28,053 bases of DNA from an uncultured Gammaproteobacteria bacterium (GTDB taxonomy: Bacteria; Pseudomonadota; Gammaproteobacteria; Pseudomonadales; Azotimanducaceae), in the NCBI GenBank assembly GCA_913043075.1, contig CAJWLI010000001.1:1-28053 (forward strand), in the 5' to 3' direction. A model generated the notes under the pieces. It saw only the letters and a program-made list of their open reading frames with translations, made no database searches and was not told the origin of the DNA. How positions within the stretch are numbered: the stretch's first letter is position 1; each line of letters begins with the position of its first letter. Positions 1-23,994 of this stretch are shown here, piece by piece. Made by a program: the position numbers and the translations under genes.

Positions 1-1
1 C

Positions 2-763
2 GGTTTAGCTGGTTTTCCGATGGTGGAACCTGGCGATGACCTAGCGCAATTTATTATTGATGCGATCAAAGATAACAAGCGCCAGTTACAAGACGGAGAT
101 GTAATCGTTATTGCCCAGAAGGTTGTTTCGAAAGCGGAGAATAGATACTTAGATCTGCGGACAATAGAACCTTCCGAGAGAGCGATAGAGCTATCAAAAA
201 AAGTTCAGAAGGATCCGAGGAAGGTACAAGCAATTTTAAATGAATCCAATGAAGTAGTAAGGGCTGTGCCTGGTGTGCTCATTGTAGAACAAAAGAACGG
301 TTTTGTTCAGGCGAACGCGGGGATAGATCAATCAAACATTGATGTCCCAGGTGTTGATCCGGAAGAGGTTTGTTTGCTGTTGCCAGAGAACTCTGACGAG
401 AGCGCAGCTAAAATTAGGGAGAAGATTAGAGGAGCTTCGGGACGAGAAGTCGGTGTCATAATTAATGATTCACTTGGCAGGCCATGGCGAGTTGGTACCT
501 TAGGCCTGGCCATAGGTGTTTCTGGTTTCACAGCCCTAGAAGACTACATCGGCGGGCAAGATATTTACGGCCGTGAGCTGCAGGTTACTCAGGTAGGTGC
601 TGCAGATGAGCTCGCTGCAGGTGCTTCTATAGTAATGGGTCAAACGACCGAAAAAACGCCAGTAGTGTTAGTTCGGGGATACCACCCCAAGGAGCCGATG
701 GAGGATGGATTGAAAGGCGTAGGCCCATTGATTCGTGCCAAGGAATTCGACCTGTTCAGGTAG
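2..763 (+). CDS. cofE: Coenzyme F420-0:L-glutamate ligase (stand-alone CofE), 5' end outside the window
   Basis: The frame is open from base 2 (GLAGFPMVEPGDDL...), so the ATG at 20 is internal. CofE motifs: GDVIVIAQKVVSKAE, NAGIDQSN, DSLGRPWR, ADELAAGASIVMGQ..E..PVVLVRG and the C-terminal DLFR. TAG at 761-763, with no C-terminal nitroreductase domain. Confidence 0.95.
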   Translation, partial: GLAGFPMVEPGDDLAQFIIDAIKDNKRQLQDGDVIVIAQKVVSKAENRYLDLRTIEPSERAIELSKKVQKDPRKVQAILNESNEVVRAVPGVLIVEQKNGFVQANAGIDQSNIDVPGVDPEEVCLLLPENSDESAAKIREKIRGASGREVGVIINDSLGRPWRVGTLGLAIGVSGFTALEDYIGGQDIYGRELQVTQVGAADELAAGASIVMGQTTEKTPVVLVRGYHPKEPMEDGLKGVGPLIRAKEFDLFR

Positions 764-770
764 GTTAGCA

Positions 771-1745
771 ATGAGCGAAAAAAATAAAGAGCGCGTCCTT
801 GCGCTTTCTGGCGGAGTCGGAGGATCGAAGCTGGCCTTTGGGCTCTCCAAGATGTTGCCTCCTGATCAGCTGACGATTTTAGCGAATACTGGAGATGATT
901 TTGAGCACTTAGGCTTTACTATCTGCCCGGACATTGATTCTTTGCTTTATAGTCTTTCTGGGATCAACAACAGCAAGTTAGGTTGGGGCCAAAAGGGGGA
1001 GACCTGGAATTTTTTGTCGGCACTGGAGCGTTTGGGAGGAGAGACTTGGTTTAAGCTTGGTGATCGAGATCTAGCAACTCATATTTTTCGGGCAGCAAAG
1101 CTCAAAGAAGGCTTGTCCCTTTCGGAGGTGACTATGCTGCTTGCCGATGGAATGGGCGCATCCCATCGAATTTTGCCTATGACTGACCAGCCCGTCAGGA
1201 CTATGATTCAGTGTGAACTGGGTTCTCTGAGCTTTCAAAATTACTTTGTAAAAGAGAGATGCGAGCCCAAAGTCAAGGACATCAGTTTCGAGGGGATCGA
1301 ATCCGCTATCTTAAACCCTGCCGCTCTTGATCTTATTGAGCAAGGATTGAAAGCAGTTATCATCTGCCCGTCTAACCCATTTTTATCTATCGACCCCATT
1401 CTATCGCTTGATGGTGTTGTCAATGCAATAAAAAAGCAAGGCTGCCCTGTGATCGCCGTCTCAAACATAATCGGCGGCGCCGCTCTGAAAGGACCCGCAG
1501 CTAAATTGATGAGCGAGCTGGGCATGGCTGAGTCTGCTTTAGGGGTCGCCAGGTACTATCAGGAACGTTACCCGGGGCTATTGACTGATTTTGTTTTAGA
1601 TCAAAAAGACAAAAATCTTGAAAATGATATCGCAACGCTTAACTTGTCGACTTCAGTGACCCAAACGTTAATGAATTCCTCGGAGCGCAAAAAGAAGCTG
1701 GCTGCCCATATCTTGAACTTAGCTTCTAAGGCATTGTCGTTTTGA
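771..1745 (+). CDS. cofD: 2-phospho-L-lactate/EPPG:Fo transferase (CofD/FbiA)
   Basis: Motifs ALSGGVGGSKL, NTGDDF, ICPDIDS, LGDRDLATH, PMTD, FQNYFV and IICPSNPFLSIDPIL. ATG 771, 7 bp after the cofE stop, is preferred over the track's GTG 735, which overlaps cofE. Confidence 0.95.
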   Translation: MSEKNKERVLALSGGVGGSKLAFGLSKMLPPDQLTILANTGDDFEHLGFTICPDIDSLLYSLSGINNSKLGWGQKGETWNFLSALERLGGETWFKLGDRDLATHIFRAAKLKEGLSLSEVTMLLADGMGASHRILPMTDQPVRTMIQCELGSLSFQNYFVKERCEPKVKDISFEGIESAILNPAALDLIEQGLKAVIICPSNPFLSIDPILSLDGVVNAIKKQGCPVIAVSNIIGGAALKGPAAKLMSELGMAESALGVARYYQERYPGLLTDFVLDQKDKNLENDIATLNLSTSVTQTLMNSSERKKKLAAHILNLASKALSF

Positions 1746-2440
1746 ATAAGGTGTGTGCAGTTATTCCAATTGGAGATCTTTCATGCGCAAAGAGTCGACT
1801 TTCCAGCGTCCTAAGCAGAGAAGAAAGAACTAAGTTTTTTATAGCCATGGTGAAGGACGTGTTAAGTGCACTTAGCAAGTGTACTAAAGTCCAGTCGATA
1901 ATGGTGGTTACGAACGATGGAGAGGCGGCCTCCTTAGCCAATTCTTATGGAGCCGTGGTAAAGCCGGAACCCGAACATCCAGGATTAATCCAATCTGTGA
2001 CCCACGCTGCAGCGTTACTTGAAAAAGCTTACGCAGATATCATGTTATTTTTGCCAGGAGACGTGCCGTTGATAAACACTGAAGAGTTAGAGGCCGTTAT
2101 AGACGGCCTAAGCCAGTCAAAGGCTAGTGGACTAGTAATTGTTCCTTCTAAAGACTTTGGAGGCACGAACTGTATGGCTATATCCCCTCCAAGTGCGATA
2201 GACTTCCAGTTCGGGAAGGACAGTTACAGAAAGCACATTAAGAACGCGAGGAGCAAAGGAATTGAACCAGAAACGCTCACCTTGCCCGGCTTAGGTATGG
2301 ATATAGATACGCCTGAGGACCTTATGGTATTAATTAGGACGATTGGGGATACAAACCAGAACTTGGTTTCAAGCAGCACCTTTAATTACTTGAAGTCGAG
2401 CGGAATAGCAGAGCGTTTAACTAAACTATCTGGGGTATAA
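1742..2440 (+). CDS. cofC: Phosphoenolpyruvate/2-phospholactate guanylyltransferase (CofC/FbiD)
   Basis: Motifs AKSRL, PGDVP, GGTN, FGKDS..H and DIDTPED. The TTG start overlaps the cofD TGA (TTGA at 1742-1745); GTG 1751 is an alternative start. Confidence 0.93.
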   Translation: MNKVCAVIPIGDLSCAKSRLSSVLSREERTKFFIAMVKDVLSALSKCTKVQSIMVVTNDGEAASLANSYGAVVKPEPEHPGLIQSVTHAAALLEKAYADIMLFLPGDVPLINTEELEAVIDGLSQSKASGLVIVPSKDFGGTNCMAISPPSAIDFQFGKDSYRKHIKNARSKGIEPETLTLPGLGMDIDTPEDLMVLIRTIGDTNQNLVSSSTFNYLKSSGIAERLTKLSGV

Positions 2441-2447
2441 CAAACCG

Positions 2448-4955
2448 ATGACGATTCAAAATATCCTTTTGAAGGAAGCTCTAGAGAGAAGGCTGAGCGA
2501 TGACGAGATACTCGCGCTAGGATCTTTTTCTGATACTGAGATGTTGTCCCTAGCGGCCAGACAAATAAGGGACGCTGGACACCAGAATTTGGTCTCATAC
2601 TCCCGCAAGGTCTTTATCCCGCTCACTCATCTTTGCCGAGATGTTTGCCATTACTGCACCTTTGCACAGGTGCCCCGAAAACTTAAAGCCCCTTATTTAA
2701 AACCGGAAGAGGTTCTAAAAATTGCTAGGGACGGAGCAGATGCTGGTTGTAAAGAGGCTTTGTTTACCCTGGGCGATAAGCCAGAGCTGCGTTATAAGGC
2801 GGCTAGGGAGGGGCTTAAAGAGCTCAAACAGGATTCAACTCTCTCGTACCTCAAGGACATGGCTCAACTCGTTCTGGATGAAACAGGGTTGTTCCCTCAC
2901 CTCAACCCTGGGCTGATGAGTGAATCGGAGGTTAAAGAACTTCGTTCTGTTTCAGTTTCTATGGGAATTATGCTGGAGAGTGATTCAGATAGGTTAACTG
3001 AAAAAGGTATGCCGCATTATGGATCCCCCGACAAGATCCCTGCTCGGCGAATCGAGACTCTGGAAAACGCTGGTAGGGCTAAGGTGCCTTTTACTTCAGG
3101 CATTTTAATTGGGATTGGGGAAACAAGAGAAGAACGAGTGAAATCAATCTTAACTCTACGAAGGCTGAGTGAAGAATTTGGACATATTCAAGAGATCATT
3201 GTCCAGAATTTTAGAGCGAAGCCAGAAACACTCATGGCCAAAGCCCCCGAGCCTGATTTGAACGAACTGCTATGGACGATTGCCTTGGCAAGAATCGCGT
3301 TCGGTGCTGAGATGAATATCCAGGCCCCGCCAAATTTAAGCCCCGGTGTTTTTGAAAAAATAGTTGGAGCAGGGATTAACGACTGGGGAGGTGTCTCTCC
3401 GGTTACCCCAGATTTTGTAAACCCAGAAGCTCCATGGCCTCATTTGGTTGATTTGGCCGACAGAACAAGGGGTGCAGGGAAGCTTCTGCTAGAAAGGCTT
3501 GCACTATATCCCAGCCATGCTAACGACCTCGACAAATGGGTGGATCCGTCTATTCGCCCGATAGTTTTACAAGCAATTGACGGCTCTGGTTTTGCGCGTT
3601 CAGAGACATGGAGTGCGGGCGACTTAATTCCCCCTCCTCAGCTTGATATAGGTTTGGTTTCGGCTATTCCAAGAGATCGTGTGTCAAGTGACATAACCTA
3701 TATCCTTGAAAAAGCAATTAGCGAAAGAGGATCTCTATCTGAGGCTGAAATCGAGAGAATGATGCAGGCAAGAGGCTCTGATTTTACTGCAGTTTGCCAG
3801 GCCGCGGATAAATATAGAAAAGTAGTGGCAGGTGACGAAGTTACCTACTGCGTAAACCGAAACATTAATTACACAAATATCTGCTATTTCAAATGCCAAT
3901 TTTGCGCTTTTTCAAAGGGCAAAATGAGCGAAAATTTAAGAGGTCGGCCCTACGATCTTTCCCATGAAGAGATTATGAGACGAACAAAGGAGGCTTGGGA
4001 CAGAGGTGCCAGTGAGGTGTGTCTTCAAGGGGGAATTCATCCAGAATATGATGGCAATACCTATATTGACATATGCCGTTCTATTAAACAGGTGGTTCCT
4101 GAGATGCACATCCATGCTTTTTCACCGCTTGAGGTTTGGCAAGGAGCAAAAACTCTGGGACTGCCCATACCAGACTTTTTGAGAGAGCTTAAAGAAGCGG
4201 GGCTGGGAACACTTCCAGGCACTGCCGCTGAGATTCTTGATGATGAAGTTAGGAAGGATCTATGCCCAGACAAGATCAATACTTCACAGTGGCTCGAGGT
4301 AATGGAGGCAGCGCACAACGAGGGTTTCAACACCACTGCTACGATAATGTACGGGCATCTTGAGCGCTACCGTCACGTGGCGAAGCATCTGCTACGCGTA
4401 AAAAATCTCCAGATGAAAACGGGAGGTTTTACTGAGTTTGTTATATTGCCTTATATTCACATGGAATCCCCCCTTTATCTCAAAGGTAAAGCCAGGAAGG
4501 GCCCTACATTTCGAGAGGCCGTGCTAATTCACGCGGTGTCACGTTTAGTTTTGTCTCCCCATTTCAAGAATATTCAGGCGTCTTGGACCAAGCTGGGGCA
4601 TGAGGGCATAAAAGCCTGTTTGAGAGCTGGTGTAAACGATATCGGGGGTACTTTAATGAATGAGACCATTACACGAGCGGCAGGTGCTTCCCACGGACAA
4701 GAGACTACCCCAGACGAGATGGAAAAGTTGATCAAAAGTGTAGGTAGGCAGCCAAGGCAGCGAACCACTTCATATGGACACGTTTCAGAGCTTCAGCGTC
4801 AGAAATCCCTTGGGGCTGGGGATCTAGCTGAGCCTGTCTATGCTAGCGCAGAAAAATATGAGAGAAAATCAAGCCGCAAAAAGTCAAAACTAGTCCGCCC
4901 AGGTATTGATAATCTTGGAGGAGAGGAAAAAATAACAAGCGCCGATATTGTTTAG
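2448..4955 (+). CDS. fbiC: Bifunctional Fo synthase, CofG-CofH fusion (FbiC) with two radical SAM domains
   Basis: 835 aa with two CxxxCxxC motifs: CRDVCHYC (nt 2634-2657) after SYSRKVFIPLT, and CYFKCQFC (nt 3882-3905) after NRNINYTNI. Also NDWGGVSPVT.D.VNPE.PWP (CofG) and GTLMNETITRAAGA (CofH). Confidence 0.96.
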   Translation: MTIQNILLKEALERRLSDDEILALGSFSDTEMLSLAARQIRDAGHQNLVSYSRKVFIPLTHLCRDVCHYCTFAQVPRKLKAPYLKPEEVLKIARDGADAGCKEALFTLGDKPELRYKAAREGLKELKQDSTLSYLKDMAQLVLDETGLFPHLNPGLMSESEVKELRSVSVSMGIMLESDSDRLTEKGMPHYGSPDKIPARRIETLENAGRAKVPFTSGILIGIGETREERVKSILTLRRLSEEFGHIQEIIVQNFRAKPETLMAKAPEPDLNELLWTIALARIAFGAEMNIQAPPNLSPGVFEKIVGAGINDWGGVSPVTPDFVNPEAPWPHLVDLADRTRGAGKLLLERLALYPSHANDLDKWVDPSIRPIVLQAIDGSGFARSETWSAGDLIPPPQLDIGLVSAIPRDRVSSDITYILEKAISERGSLSEAEIERMMQARGSDFTAVCQAADKYRKVVAGDEVTYCVNRNINYTNICYFKCQFCAFSKGKMSENLRGRPYDLSHEEIMRRTKEAWDRGASEVCLQGGIHPEYDGNTYIDICRSIKQVVPEMHIHAFSPLEVWQGAKTLGLPIPDFLRELKEAGLGTLPGTAAEILDDEVRKDLCPDKINTSQWLEVMEAAHNEGFNTTATIMYGHLERYRHVAKHLLRVKNLQMKTGGFTEFVILPYIHMESPLYLKGKARKGPTFREAVLIHAVSRLVLSPHFKNIQASWTKLGHEGIKACLRAGVNDIGGTLMNETITRAAGASHGQETTPDEMEKLIKSVGRQPRQRTTSYGHVSELQRQKSLGAGDLAEPVYASAEKYERKSSRKKSKLVRPGIDNLGGEEKITSADIV

Positions 4956-4968
4956 AAAGGGAGATTAA

Positions 4969-5964
4969 ATGAGCATACGTCAGAGGGTAGCGTTGACTTT
5001 GCCAGATCCGCGAGGAGTGAACGCAACGATTGAGATGGCTAGGCGCGCTGAGGCAGAGGGTTATGATGACCTTTGGTTCGCTGATTCGGGCGGCGTTGAC
5101 GCGTTGACGACCGCGGCCGCGGTCGCGATTAACACTAAGAGGGTTAGAATTGGTACGGCTATCATCCCCGTCTACACCCGCACACCGGCGGTTCTTGCGT
5201 CTACGACTCGCGTTTTGTGGGAGTTGTCAGAGGGACGCTTTATTCTCGGTCTTGGCTCGTCTAGTCAAACTATGATGGAAAACTGGAACGGTCAAAAGTT
5301 CGAAAAACCATTAACTCGGGTCAAGGAAACAACACAGTTAGTTAAGTCGATTCTTAGAGGCGAGAAGACAGATTACTCTGGTGAGACAGTAAAAAGCCGT
5401 GGCTACAAACAGATTCCTGTAGAAGATGGGGTGCAACCAGTTTATATGGCTGCATTGCGACCAGGCATGCTGGAGGCAGCTGCAGAGTTCTCCGATGGTG
5501 TAATTCTTAATTTATTCCCGAAAGAAGCTCTACCGAAAATGATGGAACATATCAGAATTGGAGCAGAAAGGGCTGGAAAGAGACTTGAGGATGTTGAGGT
5601 TGTCTGCAGACATCAAGTTGTAGTTACTGACGATAAAGAGAATTCAAGGAATTTAATACGTGCGGGCTTTGCCCCTTATTACGCCACCCCAGTTTACAAT
5701 AAATTTTTGGCATGGTGTGGCTACGAAGATGTGGCCGAGTCAATAAGAGATGGTTGGGCGTCCAAAGATAGAGATAAAACTACTAGCGCGTTGAGTGATA
5801 AGCTTGTTGAAGACATAGCTATTTTAGGCTCTGAGGAGCAGTGTCATGACCGTATAAGAGAATATGCGGAGATGGGGATTACTACTCATATTATCTCCTG
5901 TGTTTCTCCGAAAGATTCACAGCGAACCTTTCAAGCCTTTTCTGGCAATAAATTTAGTATTTGA
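4969..5964 (+). CDS. LLM-class (luciferase-like) oxidoreductase, probably F420-dependent, Mer-like
   Basis: Motifs AEAEGYDDLW, RIGTAIIPVYTRTP, SEGRFILGLG and ADGVILN-like. SD-like AAAGGGAG upstream; 13 bp after fbiC. Confidence 0.85.
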   Translation: MSIRQRVALTLPDPRGVNATIEMARRAEAEGYDDLWFADSGGVDALTTAAAVAINTKRVRIGTAIIPVYTRTPAVLASTTRVLWELSEGRFILGLGSSSQTMMENWNGQKFEKPLTRVKETTQLVKSILRGEKTDYSGETVKSRGYKQIPVEDGVQPVYMAALRPGMLEAAAEFSDGVILNLFPKEALPKMMEHIRIGAERAGKRLEDVEVVCRHQVVVTDDKENSRNLIRAGFAPYYATPVYNKFLAWCGYEDVAESIRDGWASKDRDKTTSALSDKLVEDIAILGSEEQCHDRIREYAEMGITTHIISCVSPKDSQRTFQAFSGNKFSI

Positions 5965-5991
5965 ATAAATCGACTTAAAAGAGGAAAAAAT

Positions 5992-6999
5992 ATGATAGTA
6001 GACGGTGGTATATCAACTGATAATCTCGCAGGTGTCCCAGCCCATGCCAAGAGACTCGAGGCACTTGGCTATCATGGCGCAGTTACGGCTGAAACATCGC
6101 ACGACCCATTCTTTCCCCTTTTGCTCGCGGCAGAGCACACAGAAAAAATTCAATTGGTTACATCAATTGCCGTCGCTTTCGCGCGAACGCCGATGAATTT
6201 GGCGAACATCGGGCATGACCTTAATAGCTTTTCGAAAGGACGTTTTGTTTTGGGCTTGGGATCTCAAATAAGACCTCATGTTACGAAACGATTTAGCATG
6301 CCCTGGTCAAAGCCAGCCGCCAGGATGCGGGAATTCATTTCTGCGATGCGGGCTATCTGGGACTGCTGGCATAATGGCTCACAGCTTTCCTTTAAAGGTG
6401 ATTTCTACGACCACTCGCTTATGACACCAATGTTCACGCCTTTGGATAGCGAATATGGCGCCCCACGGGTAATGCTGGCGGCGGTCGGTCCGTTGATGAC
6501 TGAGGTCGCAGGCGAGGTAGCGGACGGAGTTATTATTCATTCTTTTACGACGAAAAAATATTTACAGGAAGTGACGCTTCCTGCTGTTGAAAAGGGTCTT
6601 GAAAAGGCGGGCCGGTCAAGGTCGGACTTCCAGATATCGTACCCGGGCTTCATTGTGACTGGCAAAAATGAGGAAGAGTTCAATGCTACAAAAAAAGCGG
6701 TGTGCAAGCAGATAGCATTTTATGGCTCTACTCCTGCCTATGCGCCGGTTCTTGGTTCTCATGGTTGGGGAGATTTGCAGCCTGAATTGAATAAATTATC
6801 AAAGATGGGGAATTGGGATGAAATGGGATCTCTCATCACTGATGAGATTCTAAACGAATTTGCCATAGTGGGAGAACTGGATCAGGTGGTGGATAAGTTC
6901 AAAAATCGATACTCTGGTCTAGTTGACCGAACTATGGGATCTTTGCCCGCGCGTGATGACGAACACGCCAAAGAATTATTAAGGAACTTGAGCGCTTAA
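5992..6999 (+). CDS. LLM-class F420-dependent oxidoreductase, MSMEG_2256-like (TIGR03617-like)
   Basis: Strings I recall as typical of the family: AETSHDPF.PL.LAAEHT, VAFARTPM, LGLGSQIRPH..KRFSMPWS.PAARMREF and IAFYGSTPAY. SD GAGG upstream. Confidence 0.85.
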   Translation: MIVDGGISTDNLAGVPAHAKRLEALGYHGAVTAETSHDPFFPLLLAAEHTEKIQLVTSIAVAFARTPMNLANIGHDLNSFSKGRFVLGLGSQIRPHVTKRFSMPWSKPAARMREFISAMRAIWDCWHNGSQLSFKGDFYDHSLMTPMFTPLDSEYGAPRVMLAAVGPLMTEVAGEVADGVIIHSFTTKKYLQEVTLPAVEKGLEKAGRSRSDFQISYPGFIVTGKNEEEFNATKKAVCKQIAFYGSTPAYAPVLGSHGWGDLQPELNKLSKMGNWDEMGSLITDEILNEFAIVGELDQVVDKFKNRYSGLVDRTMGSLPARDDEHAKELLRNLSA

Positions 7000-7036
7000 A
7001 AAAGAAGATAGAGATTAATTACACAAGGAATAAGAC

Positions 7037-8071
7037 ATGAAGCTAGGAATTTTAAATGGTCTAGGCGGAAAAAATATCGCGATAGATATCAATAGAATAA
7101 AGGCAGCAGAGAGTATGGGTTATGACTCTGTCTGGACAGCAGAAGCTTACGGATCAGATGCTGTAACTCCGGCAGCCTGGATTCTCGCTCACACCGAAAA
7201 GATCAAGGTTGGAACAGCCATAATGCAAATGCCTGGACGCAGTCCAGCTTGCACCGCCAGTACTGCGATGACCCTCAATCAGCTCTCAAATGGACGATTT
7301 ATAGTCGGTCTAGGTGCTTCTGGCCCTCAAGTCGTGGAGGGTTGGCACGGGGTAGCATACGGCAGACCTATGACTAGAACAAAAGAATACATTGACATCA
7401 TGCGAAAGATATTCGCTAGAGAAGAACCGGTAGAGCATCAGGGGTTCCATTATAGTATGCCTTACCAGGGCGAAGACGGGACTGGACTTGGCAAGCCTTT
7501 AAAAAGCATGTTGGCAGCTGATACTTCAATAAAGATCTATACTGCTGCGATTACACCAAAAGGCTTAGAGACCTCAGGCGAGGTAGCAGACGGAGTGTTC
7601 CCTATATGGATGCCTCCAGAAAAAACCGATGTCTTGGTTGACTCTATTCAGAGTGGGCTCAGCAAATCCGGCAGGTCATTGGTTGAATACGATGTTGCCC
7701 CTTTTGTCACTGTCATGATTGGGGATAATCTTGATCATTGCAGAATGCCAATAAAAGGAAACATGGCGCTTTACATTGGCGGCATGGGAGCTCGGAACAA
7801 AAATTTCTATAATGACTATGCTAAAGCCTTGGGATATGAAGACGCCGCGATAAAGATCCAGGATCTTTTCTTGTCTGGAAAGAAAGATGAAGCCATGGCG
7901 GCGGTTCCAGACGAACTGGTCGATGCGTGCCATCTGGTAGGTCCAGTTGAGCGAATCAAAGAACGTCTGCAGGTTTGGAAGGAAGCCAGTGCCTCCGGAA
8001 AAATTGGTAGCATGTTAATTGGCGCGGGTCAGCAAGAAGCGTTGGAGCTAGTTGCGGGAGAAATGCTTTAG
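7037..8071 (+). CDS. LLM-class F420-dependent oxidoreductase, Rv3520c-like (TIGR03559-like)
   Basis: Strings GYDSVWTAEAYGSDA.TP.AWI, GLGASGPQVVEGWHG and ALYIGGMGAR.KNFYN, recalled as the Rv3520c family pattern. SD AAGGA upstream. Confidence 0.85.
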   Translation: MKLGILNGLGGKNIAIDINRIKAAESMGYDSVWTAEAYGSDAVTPAAWILAHTEKIKVGTAIMQMPGRSPACTASTAMTLNQLSNGRFIVGLGASGPQVVEGWHGVAYGRPMTRTKEYIDIMRKIFAREEPVEHQGFHYSMPYQGEDGTGLGKPLKSMLAADTSIKIYTAAITPKGLETSGEVADGVFPIWMPPEKTDVLVDSIQSGLSKSGRSLVEYDVAPFVTVMIGDNLDHCRMPIKGNMALYIGGMGARNKNFYNDYAKALGYEDAAIKIQDLFLSGKKDEAMAAVPDELVDACHLVGPVERIKERLQVWKEASASGKIGSMLIGAGQQEALELVAGEML

Positions 8072-8110
8072 TAATGCATTCCGAGTAAAAAAATTTCAAA
8101 TTCAGATTAT

Positions 8111-9259
8111 GTGATTAAGGTCTTTCCTGACATAAGGGAAATAGACCAGAGCTGCTGGGACAAATGCGCTGCACCCAAAGGGTCAACGTTTGACCCGTTC
8201 ACTTCATATAGCTTTCTTCGAGCGCTCGAAGAAAGCAAATCTGCTTGCTCGGAATCTGGTTGGTCCCCATGTCATCTAGGCTTAGAGAGCTCCTGTGGAG
8301 AATTGTTGGGAATTGTTCCGAGTTATTTAAAGAGTCATTCTCAAGGGGAATACGTTTTTGATTATGCGTGGGCAGACGCGTTTGAGAGGGCGGGAGGTCG
8401 TTATTATCCTAAGTTGCAAATTAGCATCCCTTTTACGCCGGCAACTGGCAGAAGATTGTTGGTTAGTGATCGCGTTGATTCGAAGGGTTTAGAAACGGAA
8501 CTGGCCCAAGGGCTTTTATCTTTGGCAGACAGACTAAAAGCTTCATCCGTTCACCTGACTTTTTTAGAAAAAGAACAGTGGCAGGGCCTATCTAAATTAG
8601 GGTTTCTTCAGCGAACGCATAGCCAATTTCATTGGGAAAACCGAGACTACCGCTCATTCAGTGAATTCTTAGATAGTCTAGCCTCAAAGAAGCGAAAAAA
8701 CATAAAAAGAGAGCGTAAAGGCGCCGTAGAATCTGGGGTAGTCATTGAGCGCATAACTGGCAAAGAAATCCTTGAGCGTCATTGGGACGCTTTTTATAAC
8801 TTCTACCTTGACACAGCAAATAGAAAATGGGGTTCTGCATACTTAACGAGGGAGTTTTTCTCGATGGTTGGTCAAACCATGGCAGAGCATATTTTACTGA
8901 TAATGTGCAAGAAAGGCGGTAGGTACATAGCAGGGGCGATTAACTTCATTGGATCCGAGTGCCTCTATGGACGTAATTGGGGGTGCGTCGAAGATTATCC
9001 TTACCTTCATTTTGAGGTTTGCTACTACCAAGCTATAGACTTTGCAATTGAGAACAATCTTAAGAGAGTAGAGGCGGGAGCGCAGGGCGCTCACAAGTTA
9101 GCGCGAGGTTATATGCCGATTCACACTTATAGCTCTCACTGGATTGCTAATAATTCTTTTTCTGAAGCGGTTTCTAGTTATCTCGATCAAGAAAGGCAAC
9201 ATGTAGATCAAGAAATTGATTTCGTCGAGAAAAAAGGACCTTTCAAAGATAGTAAGTGA
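8111..9259 (+). CDS. FemAB-like/GNAT-fold protein (DUF482 family)
   Basis: Motifs YLKSHSQGEYVFDYAWA, YYPKL...PFTPATG, QFHW.N, LYGRNWG, LHFEVCYYQAIDFAI and EAGAQG.HKLARGY. GTG start with no clear SD. Confidence 0.9.
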   Translation: MIKVFPDIREIDQSCWDKCAAPKGSTFDPFTSYSFLRALEESKSACSESGWSPCHLGLESSCGELLGIVPSYLKSHSQGEYVFDYAWADAFERAGGRYYPKLQISIPFTPATGRRLLVSDRVDSKGLETELAQGLLSLADRLKASSVHLTFLEKEQWQGLSKLGFLQRTHSQFHWENRDYRSFSEFLDSLASKKRKNIKRERKGAVESGVVIERITGKEILERHWDAFYNFYLDTANRKWGSAYLTREFFSMVGQTMAEHILLIMCKKGGRYIAGAINFIGSECLYGRNWGCVEDYPYLHFEVCYYQAIDFAIENNLKRVEAGAQGAHKLARGYMPIHTYSSHWIANNSFSEAVSSYLDQERQHVDQEIDFVEKKGPFKDSK

Positions 9260-9306
9260 TTACTATGCATAATTCGCCACCTCTTTCCATAGATGAAAAA
9301 GTCTTC

Positions 9307-9346
9307 AAAATCAATGTATTCTATTTGAATACAGTTGTATGATTTT
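9307..9346. terminator. AT-rich imperfect hairpin between convergent genes, possible bidirectional terminator
   Basis: TGTATTC (9315-9321), a 5-nt loop, GAATACA (9327-9333), flanked by AAAATCA/TGATTTT. It is AT-rich and lacks a classic GC stem. Confidence 0.3.
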
Positions 9347-9367
9347 AGATGTATGCGAGGTGCTTGA

Positions 9368-9823
9368 TTAGATATTTTTATGTTTTGTGATATATCGGTC
9401 CAAAGCGTTAGCAAATTTCTGGAGGTCTGTTTTAGCTAGCGGTTTTGATCTGCCACTGTGTTCACCTGAAGATCGCATAGTTTCCATGAAATCTCTCAGC
9501 ACCAGTTTCTGTTTTATCGTGTCTTTGGTGAAATTCTCACCACGCGGGCTTATCACAGCGACTTCTTTATCTATTAGATCGGCTGCTAAGGGAATGTCTG
9601 ATGTTATCGCGAGATCCTTTGGGCTAGCCCGTTTTAAGATCTCGTCGTCAGCGACGTCGAATCCCCTGGGGACTTGAACAAAGTTAATTTGCTGTACTTT
9701 AGGAAGAGGGATAACTGAGTTCGCCACAAAATTTGTTCGAATTTTTGTTCTGATGCTTGCCCGGCAGAGGATCTCTCTAACGCCCTTCGGACAAGCGTCT
9801 GCGTCAACCCAAATGGTAATCAA
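9368..9823 (-). CDS. yaiI: YaiI/YqxD family protein (DUF188)
   Basis: Motifs IWVDADACP, GFDVADDEI, IT.DIPLAA, PRGE and RDFMETMRSSG. The TTG start overlaps the TGA of the upstream SDR, and an in-frame stop lies 12 nt upstream. Confidence 0.92.
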   Translation of the reverse strand: MITIWVDADACPKGVREILCRASIRTKIRTNFVANSVIPLPKVQQINFVQVPRGFDVADDEILKRASPKDLAITSDIPLAADLIDKEVAVISPRGENFTKDTIKQKLVLRDFMETMRSSGEHSGRSKPLAKTDLQKFANALDRYITKHKNI

Positions 9824-10545
9824 AAGTTTTCTTTAAAAGTTCTTATGTCTATTTCGTGTGTCCACGCATTTTTGGGCTGAGAATACAGGTACATAAACGT
9901 CTCCGATATACCATCAAGTCCAATTAAGCCATTGATTCCGGTTGAAGCGACATAATCTGGGTAATTTGATGTAATTTTCTCGCCCATGATCCCACCATCA
10001 ATTATAATGTGTCCCACGTGAATGCCCTTTGGCTGAAACTCCCTCGCTAAACTCTGTGATAATGCCCTAAGCCCCGCTTTAGCTGCAGTAAAAGCTGAGA
10101 AGTTTGGCTTACCCCTTACTGAGGCACTCGCGCCTGTGAAAAGCAACGTTCCGGACCCTCGAGTTAACATTTTCTTCACTACATTCTGGGAAAAGAGAAA
10201 TCCTCCAAACGTGCAAACTTTCCATGCTTCCTCAAAATATCCAGGTGACATGGTGATGAAATCTCCGGGAAAAGCATTTCCAGCATTGTAGACAGCAAGA
10301 TCTATGGGACCAGCTTGTTCCGCTCTATCGACTAGCGAGCTGACCTCTTCAGGATCAGTTGCGTCGGCGCAAAAGGCAGTTGCCTTGCCCCCTTCGTTAA
10401 TTATCTTTGAAGCTATTTTTTCTATAGCAGACTTAGTTCTCCCAGAAATAAAAACGTGAAGCCCAGCCCTTGCTGCATGCATAGATAAATTTGCCCCCAA
10501 TCCTTCGACTGGTCCTACGCCAAGTATCACAGCTGTCTTTTCCAA
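9820..10545 (-). CDS. Short-chain dehydrogenase/reductase, atypical subgroup with FxxxK in place of YxxxK
   Basis: Motifs AVILGVGP..GLG, YNAG, LLFTGASAS.RG, AFTAAKAGLRALSQSLAREFQPKGIHV and IIIDG. TTG start. Confidence 0.9.
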   Translation of the reverse strand: MEKTAVILGVGPVEGLGANLSMHAARAGLHVFISGRTKSAIEKIASKIINEGGKATAFCADATDPEEVSSLVDRAEQAGPIDLAVYNAGNAFPGDFITMSPGYFEEAWKVCTFGGFLFSQNVVKKMLTRGSGTLLFTGASASVRGKPNFSAFTAAKAGLRALSQSLAREFQPKGIHVGHIIIDGGIMGEKITSNYPDYVASTGINGLIGLDGISETFMYLYSQPKNAWTHEIDIRTFKENF

Positions 10546-10641
10546 TCTATAATCACTTTTTAATAACTGTGGGTTGGATGGTACCTATTGTTTGAGCGGG
10601 GTTCCATTAGAAAAAGTATAGCGATCAAAAATTTCAAATAG

Positions 10642-10670
10642 TTGCGTATTTACTTGCGCACCCTTATGCT
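10642..10670 (+). promoter_or_regulatory. Putative sigma70 promoter of the thiolase
   Basis: TTGCGT (10642-10647), a 17-nt spacer, then TATGCT (10665-10670), 36 nt before the ATG. SD GGAG at 10693-10696. TTGCGYA is repeated at 10642 and 10654. Confidence 0.45.
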
Positions 10671-10706
10671 CTTTGAAAATGAAAGCTGTTCTGGAGAACT
10701 TGTTGT

Positions 10707-11870
10707 ATGAGTGATGTATATATTGTTGAGGCATGTCGAAGCGCAATTGGTAAACGTGGAAAGGGTTTAGCGGGCTTAAAACCAGCGGATCTGTTGGGGT
10801 TGGTGCAGAAGGCTGCGCTTAATCGAGCTAAAGTTGCACCTGAAAATATTGATCAAGTCATCGGCGGATGCGTTTCCCAAGTGGGAGAGCAAACTTTTAA
10901 CATTGCAAGAATCGCCTGGCTTTCTCAAGGATTGCCTCTCGAAGTCCCCTCTACTACCGTAGATGCTCAATGCGGATCGAGTCAACAGGCGACCTCTATG
11001 GCAGCGACAATGGTTGCTTCAGGTATAGAGGATATTGTGATGAGCTGTGGCGTAGAGATGATGTCTAGGGTTCCTTTAGGTTCAGCTATGAAAGATGGCA
11101 ACCCAATGGGCGAGGACTACGGCAATTTGTATCAACCTACCAGTCAATTTATGGGCGCGGCGTTGATCGCCGAAGAATATCAAATAACTCGAGAAGACAC
11201 GGATAAATTTGGGTTAGACAGCCAGAACAAGGCCATCGAGGCTTGGAAGGAAAAAAGGTTTGATCGAGAAATTGTAAAAATAGAGGCGCCCATCTTAAAC
11301 GAAAAATTTGAGCCCACTGGAGAGAGGCGGACTGTTGATCGCGATGAGGGGTTGAGAGAGACCTCGCTTGATTCCTTGGCTGGTCTTGATCCTGTTCCAG
11401 GACAAGACGTACATACCGCTGGATCAAGCTCTCAGGTCTCAGATGGCGCCGCGGCAGTCATTATGGCATCTCGAAAGGCTTGTGACCGCTTAGATTTGAA
11501 ACCCCGCGCAAAAATTGTTGCCACGACCCTAGTTGGAGTCGATCCGGTCACGATGTTAAAGGGTCCTATACCTGCAACAAGGAAAGTTCTGGAGAGAGCC
11601 GGTTTGACAATGGATGATATTGATATTTTTGAGGTGAACGAGGCTTTTGCTTCTGTGGTGCTTGCTTGGCAAAAAGATCTTGGCGCCGACCCTGATAAAG
11701 TTAATGTCAACGGAGGCGCGATTGCGCTTGGTCATCCCACGGGAAGTACAGGGGCGAGGTTGATTACAACTGCATTGCATGAGTTGGAACGTCGAGGAGG
11801 GAAATATGCCTTGATCGCAATGTGTTGCGGTGGTGGCCTGGGAACGGGAACCATTATTGAGCGTCTATAG
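10707..11870 (+). CDS. Acetyl-CoA C-acyltransferase (3-ketoacyl-CoA thiolase), FadA5/FadA6-like
   Basis: Catalytic motifs QCGSSQQA, NEAF, GHPTG and CCGGG. The C-terminal TGTIIERL and N-terminal VQKA/QVIGGCV/GEQ/AWL resemble my recall of mycobacterial FadA5. Confidence 0.92.
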   Translation: MSDVYIVEACRSAIGKRGKGLAGLKPADLLGLVQKAALNRAKVAPENIDQVIGGCVSQVGEQTFNIARIAWLSQGLPLEVPSTTVDAQCGSSQQATSMAATMVASGIEDIVMSCGVEMMSRVPLGSAMKDGNPMGEDYGNLYQPTSQFMGAALIAEEYQITREDTDKFGLDSQNKAIEAWKEKRFDREIVKIEAPILNEKFEPTGERRTVDRDEGLRETSLDSLAGLDPVPGQDVHTAGSSSQVSDGAAAVIMASRKACDRLDLKPRAKIVATTLVGVDPVTMLKGPIPATRKVLERAGLTMDDIDIFEVNEAFASVVLAWQKDLGADPDKVNVNGGAIALGHPTGSTGARLITTALHELERRGGKYALIAMCCGGGLGTGTIIERL

Positions 11871-11910
11871 TACTCTTTAAACTCGCTAGGCTTCTATCCT
11901 TTTTGAGGTT

Positions 11911-13185
11911 TCAGGCTTTTTTATCAAAATCGATTTGAAGGCCTGTCAGTCCATGCAGTAACGCATTAGCTGAGAACTCAGGCGGGGGTGCTCCTTCTGA
12001 AAGCCTAAAGTTTTCAAGACGCTCGAATATAACTCTAAATCCTATGTTCATTTCCCTGCGGCTTAGTGCAGCCCCTAAACAATGATGAACACCTTTCCCA
12101 AACGCAACTTGGTCCTTTAGATTCTCTCTAGTGATGTCGAATTTATAAGGATCGGGGAACTTTTCTCCGTCCTGATTCGCCGATGCAAACCTAGCAAAAA
12201 GAATGCTGTCTTTAGGGATTTTTATACCATGCATCTCGACATCTTTAGTTGCTCGACGAAACATATTTGACGACGGGCTGGAGTATCTCAGCACCTCCTC
12301 AACGAAATTGGAAATAATTTCTGGAGAAGGGTCCTTCTTTATAAGTTCATACTGTTCTGGATTCTTGGTTAAAAGCCATATTCCTTCAGTCATTGATGCA
12401 GCGGTTGTTTCGTTTCCGGCAACCAAGATTTGGCTCAACATGGATAGAGACTCAGCATTTTCAAGAGGTTTTTCGCCGTCAATGCTCGCGTTAACTATTT
12501 GCGAGAGAATATCCTCCTCAGGGTTTTCTCGTCGCTCGTCCATTCTTTCCACGAAGTATTTTTGGAACTCAATGACGTCTCGTGCAGCGTTCAGCAATCC
12601 CTCTCTGTCTAACTGCCCACTTAGGTTTCCAACAAATGCTTCGGTCCATTTCCTGAAAAGCGGGATATCCTCCTCCGGGGCACCAAGCTGAGAGGAAATA
12701 ACCCTGATAGGAAGTGGTATTCCGAATTCGTCTAAAAATTCGCAAGAACCTTTGTCAATGAAATTATCGATTAGTTCATTCGAAACTGCCTCTATGAAGG
12801 GCTCCAAAGCCCTTAAATTTTTTGGTGAAAACGCGCTATTTACAAATTTTCTGTACCTGAGCTGAAGTGGAGGATCTTCAGTGAGCATTGTTGGAACGTT
12901 CTCATAACCTTCTCGCATTATCGCCAGCAGTTCTTCGTCCTCGGATGAGTATAGTGCTCTGCTAGAGGACAGCATCCTGCTAGAAAAAGTCTCATAATCT
13001 TTTGCCATCTCCACGACGTCTTCGTATCTTGATACGAAAAATATCCCCGAGTTTGGGTCCTGGAAAACCGGGGCTTCTTTTCTTAGCCGCTCGTTCATTA
13101 ACCAGGGCGATTTAAGAACCTCTGGGTGCATAGGATTGATTTGGTGTATCGGACACGTTGCAATTTTTTGTATTTCTTCTGACAT
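11911..13185 (-). CDS. Cytochrome P450
   Basis: Heme-ligand motif FGKGVHHCLGA, I-helix AGNETT and K-helix EEVLR; 424 aa. Confidence 0.96.
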   Translation of the reverse strand: MSEEIQKIATCPIHQINPMHPEVLKSPWLMNERLRKEAPVFQDPNSGIFFVSRYEDVVEMAKDYETFSSRMLSSSRALYSSEDEELLAIMREGYENVPTMLTEDPPLQLRYRKFVNSAFSPKNLRALEPFIEAVSNELIDNFIDKGSCEFLDEFGIPLPIRVISSQLGAPEEDIPLFRKWTEAFVGNLSGQLDREGLLNAARDVIEFQKYFVERMDERRENPEEDILSQIVNASIDGEKPLENAESLSMLSQILVAGNETTAASMTEGIWLLTKNPEQYELIKKDPSPEIISNFVEEVLRYSSPSSNMFRRATKDVEMHGIKIPKDSILFARFASANQDGEKFPDPYKFDITRENLKDQVAFGKGVHHCLGAALSRREMNIGFRVIFERLENFRLSEGAPPPEFSANALLHGLTGLQIDFDKKA

Positions 13186-15451: not shown

Positions 15452-17248
15452 CTACGCTACTTTTTCTGCTCGCCTTAGCTTTTCTGTGAGTACGTTCAAT
15501 TCATTCTCCAGTTCTTTCGGTACTTTATCTCCATAGGAGCTATAGTAATCACGAATTAAAGGTATTTCCTCTAGCCAACCATCAATTTCTACCTTGAGCA
15601 GGTTATCCAAGTCTCTTTCTGAAAGATTCAAACCCTCAAGGTCAATGCTGTTAGGGCTTGGTAAATTACCTATGGGAGTTTCTATAGCGCTTGCTTTTCC
15701 TTCAATTCTATCGAAGATCCATTTTAGAACCCTTGAGTTTTCTCCAAACCCCGGCCAGACAAAATTCCCTTCTCCATCTTTTCTAAACCAGTTGACGTAA
15801 AAGATTTTCGGAAGGGAATCCTTGTCCTTTTTTCCCATATTAATCCAGTGTGACCAGTAGTCAGCCATGTTGTAGCCACAGAAGGGAAGCATGGCCATCG
15901 GATCCCTGCGAAGCTCCCCTATCTTGCCGTCGGCAGCCGCAGTTTTTTCGGAGGAAACTATCGATCCAAAAAAAGTCCCTTGGACCCAGTCTCTAGCTTC
16001 ATTCACTAGAGGCACAACCGTTGCTCTTCTACCTCCAAAGAGAATTGCACTAATAGGCACCCCAGAGAGTTCTTCCCACTCCTCTGCAATCACAGGACAT
16101 TGAGCTGCTGAAACGGTGAATCGTGCATTAGGATGAGCAGCGGGCTCATTGGACTTTGGGGTCCAATCATTCCCTTTCCAATCGATCAGATGATCAGGTG
16201 CTGGTCCCATGCCTTCCCACCAGACATCGCCATCATCCGTTTCTGCGACATTGGTGAAAATACAATCTTTTTCTAGACTTCGCATCGCATTCGGATTTGA
16301 CTTCATCCCTGTTCCTGGAGCGACTCCAAAAAACCCTGCTTCAGGGTTGATAGCATAAAGTCGCCCATCAGGTCCGAATTTCATCCAACATATATCGTCG
16401 CCTACCGTTTCCACCTTCCAATCTGGGATAGTTGGAATAAGCATTGCTAAATTTGTCTTGCCGCAAGCGCTTGGGAAGGCTCCCGCGATATATCTGGAAG
16501 TTCCCTCTGGGTTGGTAAGCTTGAGTATTAGCATATGCTCGGCAAGCCAGCCTTGCTCCTTTGCCATAGCGGAAGCTATTCTCAATGCAAAGCATTTCTT
16601 TCCCAAGAGCGCATTACCTCCATAGCCCGATCCAAAGGACCAGATTTCTTTTGTTTCAGGAAAGTGAGCTACATAAAGGTTTTCTGGATTGCATGGCCAG
16701 ATTGAGTCTTCGTCTTCACTCTCGAGCGGAACGCCAACTGAGTGAACGCAAGGAACAAACTCTCCGTCTCCGCCAAGCTTTTCAAGAACTTTTTCTCCTA
16801 CTCTAGTCATAATGTGCATACTTGCAACTACGTAAGGCGAGTCCGTAATTTCTACCCCAATGTGGGCTATTGGAGAACCAACCGGTCCCATCGAGAAGGG
16901 TATTACATACATTACCCTTCCTCGCATGCAACCTTTAAACAATCCATGAAGAGTAGCTTTCATTGTTTCGGGGTTTTCCCAATTATTATTTGGACCGGCT
17001 TCCCCTTCACTCTCGGAGCAAATATAAGTCCTGCTCTCGACCCTAGCTACATCAGCAGGATCAGAACGAACTAGATAACTGTTGGGTCTCTTTGTTTCAT
17101 TGAGTTTTCTGGCTGCCCCGGATTTCAAAAGAAGATTCATCATCTGGTTATATTCTTCGGTGCTGCCATTACATATAACAAGAGAATCAGGCTCACAAAG
17201 AGATCTGATTTCTTCTAGCCAGTCAGCGAGACGCTCGTGTTTCAGCAT
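15452..17248 (-). CDS. pckG: Phosphoenolpyruvate carboxykinase (GTP)
   Basis: Motifs [34 protein letters not shown]-loop [33 protein letters not shown] and [10 protein letters not shown]. Confidence 0.97.
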
Positions 17249-23319: not shown

Positions 23320-23994
23320 TCACCACTCATCAACATGCATTATTTCTTCAACGTCGGGCCTGTATGCCGGCTTGAAACTTGTTCCTTTTGTGTAGGCTAT
23401 CGGAATAAGGGCTATTTGCATAAATTCATCGTAAGGGATACCTATGAGTTCAGCTATCTCCTTTTCGTGCATCAGGTGCAAAGTAGTCCAAGCAGTCCCT
23501 ATCCCCCTGGCTCTGGCGGCGAGCATGAAACTCCAGGCGGCTGGTATGATAGACCCATAAAGAGCTGATTGTGCTAAAACATTGTTGCTCTCAGCATTGT
23601 CGGTCCTTCCAGCGATGCAAGGAATCATCATCACTGGCACTTTACCCATATTTTCGCCCAAATAATCGGCTGAAGAGGCAGATCTCTCCTGACTGTTCGT
23701 CAAATCTTTGTCGTCAGATTCCGAATGAAGTTTGTGAATAGCCATAGGCATCTCTTTGTAAAGGCTAAACGCTTGGCGATAGAGTTCTCCAATTTTCGCT
23801 CTCTTTTCGGGATCGGTTACAAATACGAATTGCCAGCTTTGAGAGTTTGAACCTGTGGGCGCCTGCACGGCCATCTCCATGCATTCTTTTACAACTTCCA
23901 TCGATAGCGATCGTTCTAAGTCAAGTCGCTTTCTGACTGCCCTAGTAGTGCTCAAAAGCTCATCATTGGAAAGACCTAATTGTGCGTGATTCAT
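23320..23994 (-). CDS. Nitroreductase-family (FMN) protein, Rv3368c-like
   Basis: Motifs DELLSTTRAVRKRLD, QAPTGSNSQ.WQ.VFV, PAAWSFMLA.R.RG.GT.WTTLHL and GIPYDE...ALIPIAYT, matching my recall of M. tuberculosis Rv3368c. The SD TAAGGA overlaps the ACAD stop. Confidence 0.88.
   Translation of the reverse strand: MNHAQLGLSNDELLSTTRAVRKRLDLERSLSMEVVKECMEMAVQAPTGSNSQSWQFVFVTDPEKRAKIGELYRQAFSLYKEMPMAIHKLHSESDDKDLTNSQERSASSADYLGENMGKVPVMMIPCIAGRTDNAESNNVLAQSALYGSIIPAAWSFMLAARARGIGTAWTTLHLMHEKEIAELIGIPYDEFMQIALIPIAYTKGTSFKPAYRPDVEEIMHVDEW

Follow-up and report, generated by a model that had tools for sequence, protein, structure and literature searches.

The window analysed here is the entire 28,053-bp contig CAJWLI010000001.1 (C1). 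Of the 227 contigs that make up a fragmented metagenome-assembled genome (MAG; G000) of 1.51 Mb (71% complete, 0.5% contamination, 43% GC), it is the longest. Its first 8 kb are occupied by genes for the biosynthesis of the cofactor F420 and for three oxidoreductases of the luciferase-like monooxygenase (LLM) type. Completed by its relatives, this operon, fno-cofEDC-fbiC followed by three LLM genes, very probably makes F420 and supplies three client enzymes in a marine gammaproteobacterium of the OM182 / Candidatus Azotimanducaceae group. The evidence consists of the identities and order of the genes, their conservation among relatives, the tie between the LLM families and F420 biosynthesis and the presence of the operon in marine RNA libraries. 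In the following, G-numbers denote the genomes compared and L-numbers related loci; G022 is a MAG of the same genus.

On the forward strand, positions 2-8071 hold seven co-directional open reading frames (ORFs), namely cofE, cofD, cofC, a fused fbiC and LLM1 to LLM3 (Table 1). All seven score over the curated NCBIfam cut-off of NCBI for their own F420 family, and the Pfam matches are concordant. The two halves of FbiC are matched by TIGR03550 and TIGR03551, one each, and both contain a CX3CX2C radical-SAM motif (residues 63 and 479). CofE is a single-domain protein that does not have the C-terminal nitroreductase domain of FbiB; its match to the FbiB model NF009810, which has 449 positions, is confined to positions 18-243. 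The genes are closely packed. As read from the sequence, the cofE stop at 763 is separated by 7 bp from the cofD ATG at 771, cofD and cofC overlap by four bases (TTGA, gap -4), and the following gaps measure 7 bp (cofC/fbiC), 13 bp (fbiC/LLM1), 27 bp (LLM1/LLM2) and 37 bp (LLM2/LLM3). For cofD the ATG was taken as start; a GTG at 735 is the alternative of the longest ORF, and the G022 ORF starts at the equivalent ATG, 7 nt past the cofE stop. Purine runs resembling Shine-Dalgarno sequences precede each of the three LLM genes. A sequence scan detected no terminator-like sites on the forward strand between the operon genes, and promoter-like sites inside the operon were no commoner than in shuffled sequence. 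The gene identities, the common direction and the gaps of -4 to 37 bp had already been given in a preliminary description made from the letters of this DNA, and they were confirmed.

Table 1. Genes of the F420 operon and its conserved downstream neighbour in the window, with the profile scores and, where given, the family cut-offs.
Feature	Product	Coordinates	Strand	Profile evidence
cofE	F420-0:gamma-glutamyl ligase	2..763	+	TIGR01916, 268.6 bits (cut-off 180.65)
cofD (fbiA-like)	Transferase joining the activated C3 acid to Fo	771..1745	+	TIGR01819, 276.2 bits (cut-off 257.45); PF01933
cofC (fbiD-like)	Guanylyltransferase, 2-PL/PEP type by diagnostic residue	1742..2440	+	TIGR03552, 163.3 bits (cut-off 105)
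fbiC	Fused CofG-CofH Fo synthase, two radical-SAM halves	2448..4955	+	NF006687, 1125.2 bits (cut-off 1018)
LLM1	Predicted F420-dependent luciferase-like oxidoreductase, Rv3093c family	4969..5964	+	TIGR03841, 231 bits (cut-off 213.65)
LLM2	Predicted F420-dependent LLM oxidoreductase, MSMEG_2256 family	5992..6999	+	TIGR03617, 473.4 bits (cut-off 278.15)
LLM3	Predicted F420-dependent LLM oxidoreductase, Rv3520c family	7037..8071	+	TIGR03559, 372.2 bits (cut-off 335)
FemAB-like gene	Conserved downstream neighbour	8111..9259	+	PF04339, 518 bits

The 5′ end of the operon was examined by comparison with G022, of which one contig is collinear with the whole 28-kb window at 96.4% nucleotide identity. 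The cofE gene of the window is cut by the contig end and has lost its first six codons; the ATG of G022 cofE corresponds to a site 17 nt before position 1, and the ATG at window position 20 is internal to the gene. Immediately upstream of cofE, G022 carries fno (npdG), the gene of an NADPH:F420 oxidoreductase (TIGR01915, 189 bits, cut-off 149.8), the TAA stop of which overlaps the cofE ATG (TAATG). The fno gene also adjoins cofE in G005, G014 and G019; among 80 related loci, 50 have it ahead of cofE. Since fno lies directly upstream in the relatives and cofE is cut, the operon is 5′-incomplete in the window, which holds the 3′ nine-tenths of the conserved operon fno-cofE-cofD-cofC-fbiC-LLM1-LLM2-LLM3; the term "complete", which had been used for it in the preliminary description, was therefore abandoned.

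The region upstream of the operon in G022 maps only partly to the MAG, to contig C57, with the fno segment unassembled. In this region (G022:C9:11-2863), which contains an LLM gene and a sodium transporter gene, the two genomes are 82.7% identical, as against 96.4% for the window. This lower identity may reflect a variable region or a mixed-strain assembly.

The three LLM proteins share only 26-31% identity with one another and are predicted to use F420, with indirect support from matches to solved structures and from the genome profile. Every PDB match of LLM1 at E<=1e-8 is an F420-dependent Mer or FGD, as are eight of the nine matches of LLM2 at this threshold, the weakest being an unnamed luciferase-like monooxygenase; all six PDB matches of LLM3 are F420-dependent Mer proteins. 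In this superfamily the fold does not reveal the substrate. For the genome profile, one deterministic sample of 300 genomes of the order was used for every search, comprising 110 CofD-positive and 190 CofD-negative genomes; related genomes in this sample are not independent, and the association is given as counts alone. Strong matches to the LLM1 family were found in 30 of the CofD-positive genomes, the LLM2 family in 69 and the LLM3 family, over its cut-off, in 93 (85%), and none of the three occurred in any CofD-negative genome. They were likewise absent from 14 control genomes. Inside families that are split with respect to CofD, the LLM3 family tracks CofD and was found in the same four genomes of f15 and the same two of f247. 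The one-way association of the three LLM families with CofD is complete, and the Rv3520c type represented by LLM3 is the commonest F420 client family in the order.

With regard to gene order, the gene after fbiC is LLM1 in every one of the closest loci that reach past fbiC (11 loci). LLM2 was found at this operon position only in L012, L014, L017, L049 and G022 and is a variable member of the operon. The MAG contains 15 LLM genes in total, at least 10 of which score over F420-LLM cut-offs (besides the three of the operon, four belong to TIGR03619, two to TIGR03564 and one to TIGR03857), and one encodes an FMN-type MsnO8 enzyme. In the larger genomes of the genus, LLM matches number 26-38 and DDN-type F420H2 reductases (PF04075) 2-7; the PPOX-class F420 family TIGR03618 gave sub-threshold matches only and was not counted.

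These data bear on the question whether the genes could mainly serve to make Fo as a light-harvesting chromophore, e.g., of photolyases, with the LLM genes being unrelated flavin enzymes that happen to adjoin. FbiC alone suffices for Fo, and surface-ocean bacteria often need photolyase antennae. A role of Fo as secondary chromophore is noted in a review (PMC8498797). Such a purpose of the operon is nevertheless very unlikely, given that cofC, cofD and cofE are intact, over cut-off and conserved beside fbiC, that the LLM families never appeared without CofD in 300 genomes and that their solved-structure matches are nearly all F420-dependent.

The operon is expressed in the sea. Six marine metatranscriptomes hold 13-40% of the words sampled from positions 1-9300, and contigs from four RNA runs, each of a different study, were placed on positions 1-11000. 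The RNA contigs cover positions 1-8440 in patches, running about 300 nt beyond LLM3, and they span the junctions cofC/fbiC, fbiC/LLM1 (two runs), LLM1/LLM2 and LLM2/LLM3 (two runs). One contig of metatranscriptome X15 reaches 174 nt upstream of position 1 and runs through a TAATG fno/cofE junction like that of G022. Over positions 8442-9909, no RNA contig was found in any of the four runs, and the contrast between a covered operon and a silent flank argues against carry-over of DNA. The co-transcription of the biosynthetic genes with the client LLM genes, as proposed in the preliminary description, is supported by the tight spacing, the lack of internal terminators, the junction-spanning RNA contigs and the restriction of the LLM families to CofD-positive genomes.

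The host was assigned from several lines of evidence. The gene order fno-cofE-cofD-cofC-fbiC-LLM1-(LLM2)-LLM3 recurs in the nearest FbiC loci (69-77% identity). These loci come from MAGs with Pseudomonadales, Candidatus Azotimanducaceae, OM182 clade or Gammaproteobacteria in their titles, and one of them is the closed 4.0-Mb chromosome OY843767.1. NCBI taxonomy lists Ca. Azotimanducaceae in the order Pseudomonadales of the Gammaproteobacteria. A quick FbiC tree placed the window inside a clade of 13 members (support 100) formed exclusively by Pseudomonadales-type MAGs; Halieaceae, Spongiibacteraceae and Pseudohongiella form a second clade, and Acidobacteriota, Chloroflexota and Alphaproteobacteria branch elsewhere. 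The other 20 kb of the contig fit the tetranucleotide profile of the MAG (r 0.97). The earlier proposal of a gammaproteobacterial host, which would have fallen with a placement in Actinobacteria, Chloroflexota or Archaea, agrees with these loci, the FbiC clade and the composition, and no such placement occurred. As judged from synteny, the FbiC clade, the G022 match and the contig composition rather than from a marker-gene tree, the assignment to the OM182 / Ca. Azotimanducaceae group of marine Gammaproteobacteria (Pseudomonadales in GTDB) stands.

In the proposed pathway, FbiC would build the deazaflavin Fo, as expected from its family membership. CofC would activate a C3 phospho-acid with GTP, and this acid is probably 2-phospholactate (2-PL) or phosphoenolpyruvate (PEP) and not 3-phosphoglycerate (3-PG), according to a diagnostic glycine. 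The activated acid would be transferred to Fo by CofD, and the single-domain CofE would add gamma-glutamates. Fno, encoded just beyond the contig end in the relatives, would exchange hydride between NADPH and F420, and the three co-transcribed LLM oxidoreductases would use F420/F420H2.

Several points weigh against this interpretation. F420 production itself, its chemistry and the identity of the linker acid are predictions from the genes. The fno gene was not found in the MAG assembly, in which the 3.6 kb expected to hold it are missing or unassembled. A Logan contig that runs across two genes does not prove that they share one transcript, and DNA can be present in RNA libraries. With respect to composition, the 8.1-kb operon (1-8100) is an outlier: its GC content of 0.467 is the highest of 66 MAG windows of 8.1 kb (median 0.43), and its tetranucleotide correlation (r 0.865) falls into the lowest 2% of them. 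Finally, a dehydro-F420-0 reductase was not found, neither as a C-terminal FbiB domain nor as a conserved FbiE-like gene in the genus. With no reductase recognised and PEP as substrate, one step of the pathway is unaccounted for, although a reductase not yet recognised as such may exist in the genome.

This step would not be needed if the operon made the 3PG-F420 of the Mycetohabitans type instead of classical F420. Among the PDB matches of CofC (7P97, 6BWG, 2I5E), the best is the 3-phospho-D-glycerate guanylyltransferase of Mycetohabitans (7P97, E 4e-24), and CofE is single-domain as in this organism (PMC8498797). The match to 7P97 may, however, only mirror shared proteobacterial ancestry. 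Serine S162 of the Mycetohabitans CofC is required for the use of 3-PG (Hasan et al., PMC8764529), and the residue aligned with it is a glycine in the motif QFGKDS, which also aligns with G163 of M. tuberculosis. A second glycine occupies the position of H145. Because of these two residues, CofC looks like an enzyme of the 2-PL/PEP type and not of the 3-PG type, and the production of 3PG-F420 is considered unlikely.

As a candidate for the missing FbiE, the nitroreductase gene at window positions 23320-23994 (reverse strand) was inspected, which has a weak NCBIfam match to the C-terminal half of FbiB (E 1.8e-6) and is kept in G022. It was rejected, as its PDB matches are generic nitroreductases (NTR) and BluB, not FbiB. 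The candidacy is further weakened by the existence of better FbiB-like genes in only some members of the genus: the best genes resembling the FbiB C-terminus reach 68 bits in G014 and G019, 48 bits in the closed genome G005 and 31 bits in this MAG.

The deviating composition of the operon could also be explained by a foreign origin, i.e., a mis-binned fragment or a recent transfer from Actinobacteria, Chloroflexota or Acidobacteriota. Homologues of LLM3 with 68-72% identity beside the cassette in Acidobacteriota MAGs and the mycobacterial-looking neighbours of the operon described below (a FadA5-like thiolase, a P450 similar to CYP125/142 and a GTP-dependent PEP carboxykinase) would fit this as well. 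It is scarcely credible, however, in view of the same 28-kb arrangement in the independent MAG G022 and in closed chromosomes of the genus, the fit of the rest of the contig to the MAG and the position of FbiC in a strongly supported clade of Pseudomonadales only. The operon arrangement is common to the genus and the family, so any transfer must be old and predate the genus.

The Acidobacteriota loci were noted separately. In L046, L048, L057, L059, L060, L065 and L067, all from Acidobacteriota/Holophagales MAGs, the same fno-cofEDC-fbiC cassette is present, and the homologues of LLM3 and of the upstream LLM (62-64% identity) lie nearby on the opposite strand. This hints that marine Acidobacteriota and Gammaproteobacteria have exchanged genes of F420 clients.

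The distribution of the cassette was determined at several taxonomic levels. Of 24 other genomes in the genus, 23 carry FbiC, and CofD was found in all eight genomes from other genera of the family. In the order sample, the 110 CofD-positive genomes correspond to about 37% and belong to 46 of 137 genera, that of G000 included. In an even sample across the class, 15 of 401 genomes (about 4%, G000 included) have CofD over the cut-off. Comparing about 4% of the class with about 37% of the order, F420 biosynthesis is rare across Gammaproteobacteria and typical of this mostly marine order; the rarity implied by the preliminary description was overstated in view of the genus and order counts. In marine DNA, 14 runs belonging to six studies of 2013-2025 contain 79-87% of the words sampled from positions 1-9300.

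The NCBIfam name F420_CPS_4043, which is matched here, presumably refers to a gene of Colwellia psychrerythraea; if so, curators have long been aware of F420 markers in a marine gammaproteobacterium. The review PMC8498797 covers Alpha- and Betaproteobacteria, and its text does not mention Gammaproteobacteria. For OM182 and HTCC2089, a literature search returned no relevant paper on F420; papers on Azotimanducaceae had nothing on F420 in title or abstract. In the literature found, which was partly judged by title or abstract, no such operon was described for Gammaproteobacteria.

The FemAB-like gene lies downstream of the operon. Of the closest loci, 11 continue beyond fbiC, and all of them have this gene next to LLM3. 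It was considered as an F420 tail-modifying enzyme or as an operon member and rejected, as its family is independent of CofD and the RNA coverage fades within it. The PF04339 family is present in 240 of 301 order genomes (80%), among them entire families that lack CofD, and some CofD-positive genomes do not have it; the RNA contigs fade past about position 8440, inside the gene, in all four metatranscriptomes.

At the other end, a gene for a TrmY-like SPOUT methyltransferase was observed upstream of fno in G022 (L097:5065-5694), with an NF002560 score of 154.5 bits, under the cut-off of 183. The TrmY family is mainly archaeal. The gene precedes fno in 10 of the closest loci; next to the cassettes of more distant lineages it was not observed. 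A further observation concerns a GTP-dependent PEP carboxykinase at window positions 15452-17248 (reverse strand; NF003253, 965 bits). Most Gammaproteobacteria use the ATP-dependent PckA, and the GTP type is unusual.

Window positions 10707-13185 encode a thiolase and a neighbouring P450. The best solved match of the thiolase is the steroid 3-ketoacyl-CoA thiolase FadA5 of M. tuberculosis (415 bits, 287 bits for the next; NF005889, 542 versus 515 bits), and the P450 is closest to the sterol side-chain oxidases CYP125 and CYP142. Further downstream lipid genes encode a CasG-like CoA ligase, a CaiB-family CoA transferase, an ACAD and a MaoC-like hydratase. The synteny with these downstream genes is kept only in part among relatives. 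Rv3520c, the namesake of the LLM3 family, is located in the cholesterol region of M. tuberculosis. This setting suggests a lipid or sterol-like role for the operon enzymes. A far-reaching and rather doubtful extension would be that F420, far from being a niche cofactor, serves a large radiation of marine Gammaproteobacteria as a core redox currency, with an Rv3520c-type LLM as near-universal client and the operon LLMs working with the adjacent mycobacterial-like genes for lipid or sterol side chains. If true, a physiological role of F420 in Proteobacteria would be given for the first time, namely in reductive or oxidative steps by which sterol- or isoprenoid-like lipids are degraded in seawater.

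The question of why Proteobacteria synthesise this cofactor was listed as open in 2021, and no F420-dependent enzyme from Proteobacteria had been studied according to the same review (PMC8498797). The locus is a tractable entry to this question, being a compact, expressed operon that joins synthesis, recharging and three candidate clients. The Rv3520c-type client family, with its presence in 85% of the F420-capable order genomes and in none of the others, provides a handle on F420 function, and cultured relatives with the same core cassette exist (Litorivivens, e.g., Litorivivens lipolytica CECT 8654, as well as Haliea and Halioglobus strains). The lineage is widespread in the sea, with metagenomes of at least six studies, and invests heavily in F420 enzymes.

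The biochemistry is not new; a proteobacterial-type F420 cassette already known is extended here by three client enzymes. In the PEP / dehydro-F420 pathway of Actinobacteria and Thermomicrobium, the reduction is carried by a nitroreductase-fold reductase, either the C-terminal part of FbiB or FbiE, and neither form was recognised here. The missing dehydro-F420-0 reductase under a PEP route is a gap shared with other Proteobacteria (PMC8498797). With the mycobacterial FbiA/FbiB/FbiC/FbiD system, the operon has in common the fused FbiC and a large LLM set of the same subfamilies (Rv3093c, MSMEG_2256, Rv3520c and Rv2161c). Unlike in mycobacteria, CofE has no FbiB nitroreductase domain, the biosynthetic genes are gathered in one operon instead of being scattered, and the apparent reducing enzyme is Fno and not Fgd.

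The 3PG-F420 cluster of Mycetohabitans (Paraburkholderia) rhizoxinica contains the closest solved CofC (7P97) and resembles the operon in the single-domain CofE, the lack of a reductase domain and the proteobacterial gene set. It differs in Ser162 of CofC, which is replaced by glycine here, and M. rhizoxinica has no recognisable F420-dependent enzymes (PMC8498797), whereas the present genome is rich in them. The F420 clusters of Paracoccus denitrificans and Oligotropha carboxidovorans (Ney et al. 2017), as far as they are summarised in PMC8498797, likewise combine a fused FbiC, a single-domain CofE, CofC and CofD in one cluster, with Fno as the predicted F420-reducing enzyme and LLM or FDOR genes sometimes adjacent. 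Compared to these, the operon described here is distinguished by its marine gammaproteobacterial host, by three client LLM genes in the same transcription unit, by at least 10 F420-type LLMs in a genome of 1.5 Mb and by its transcripts in situ.

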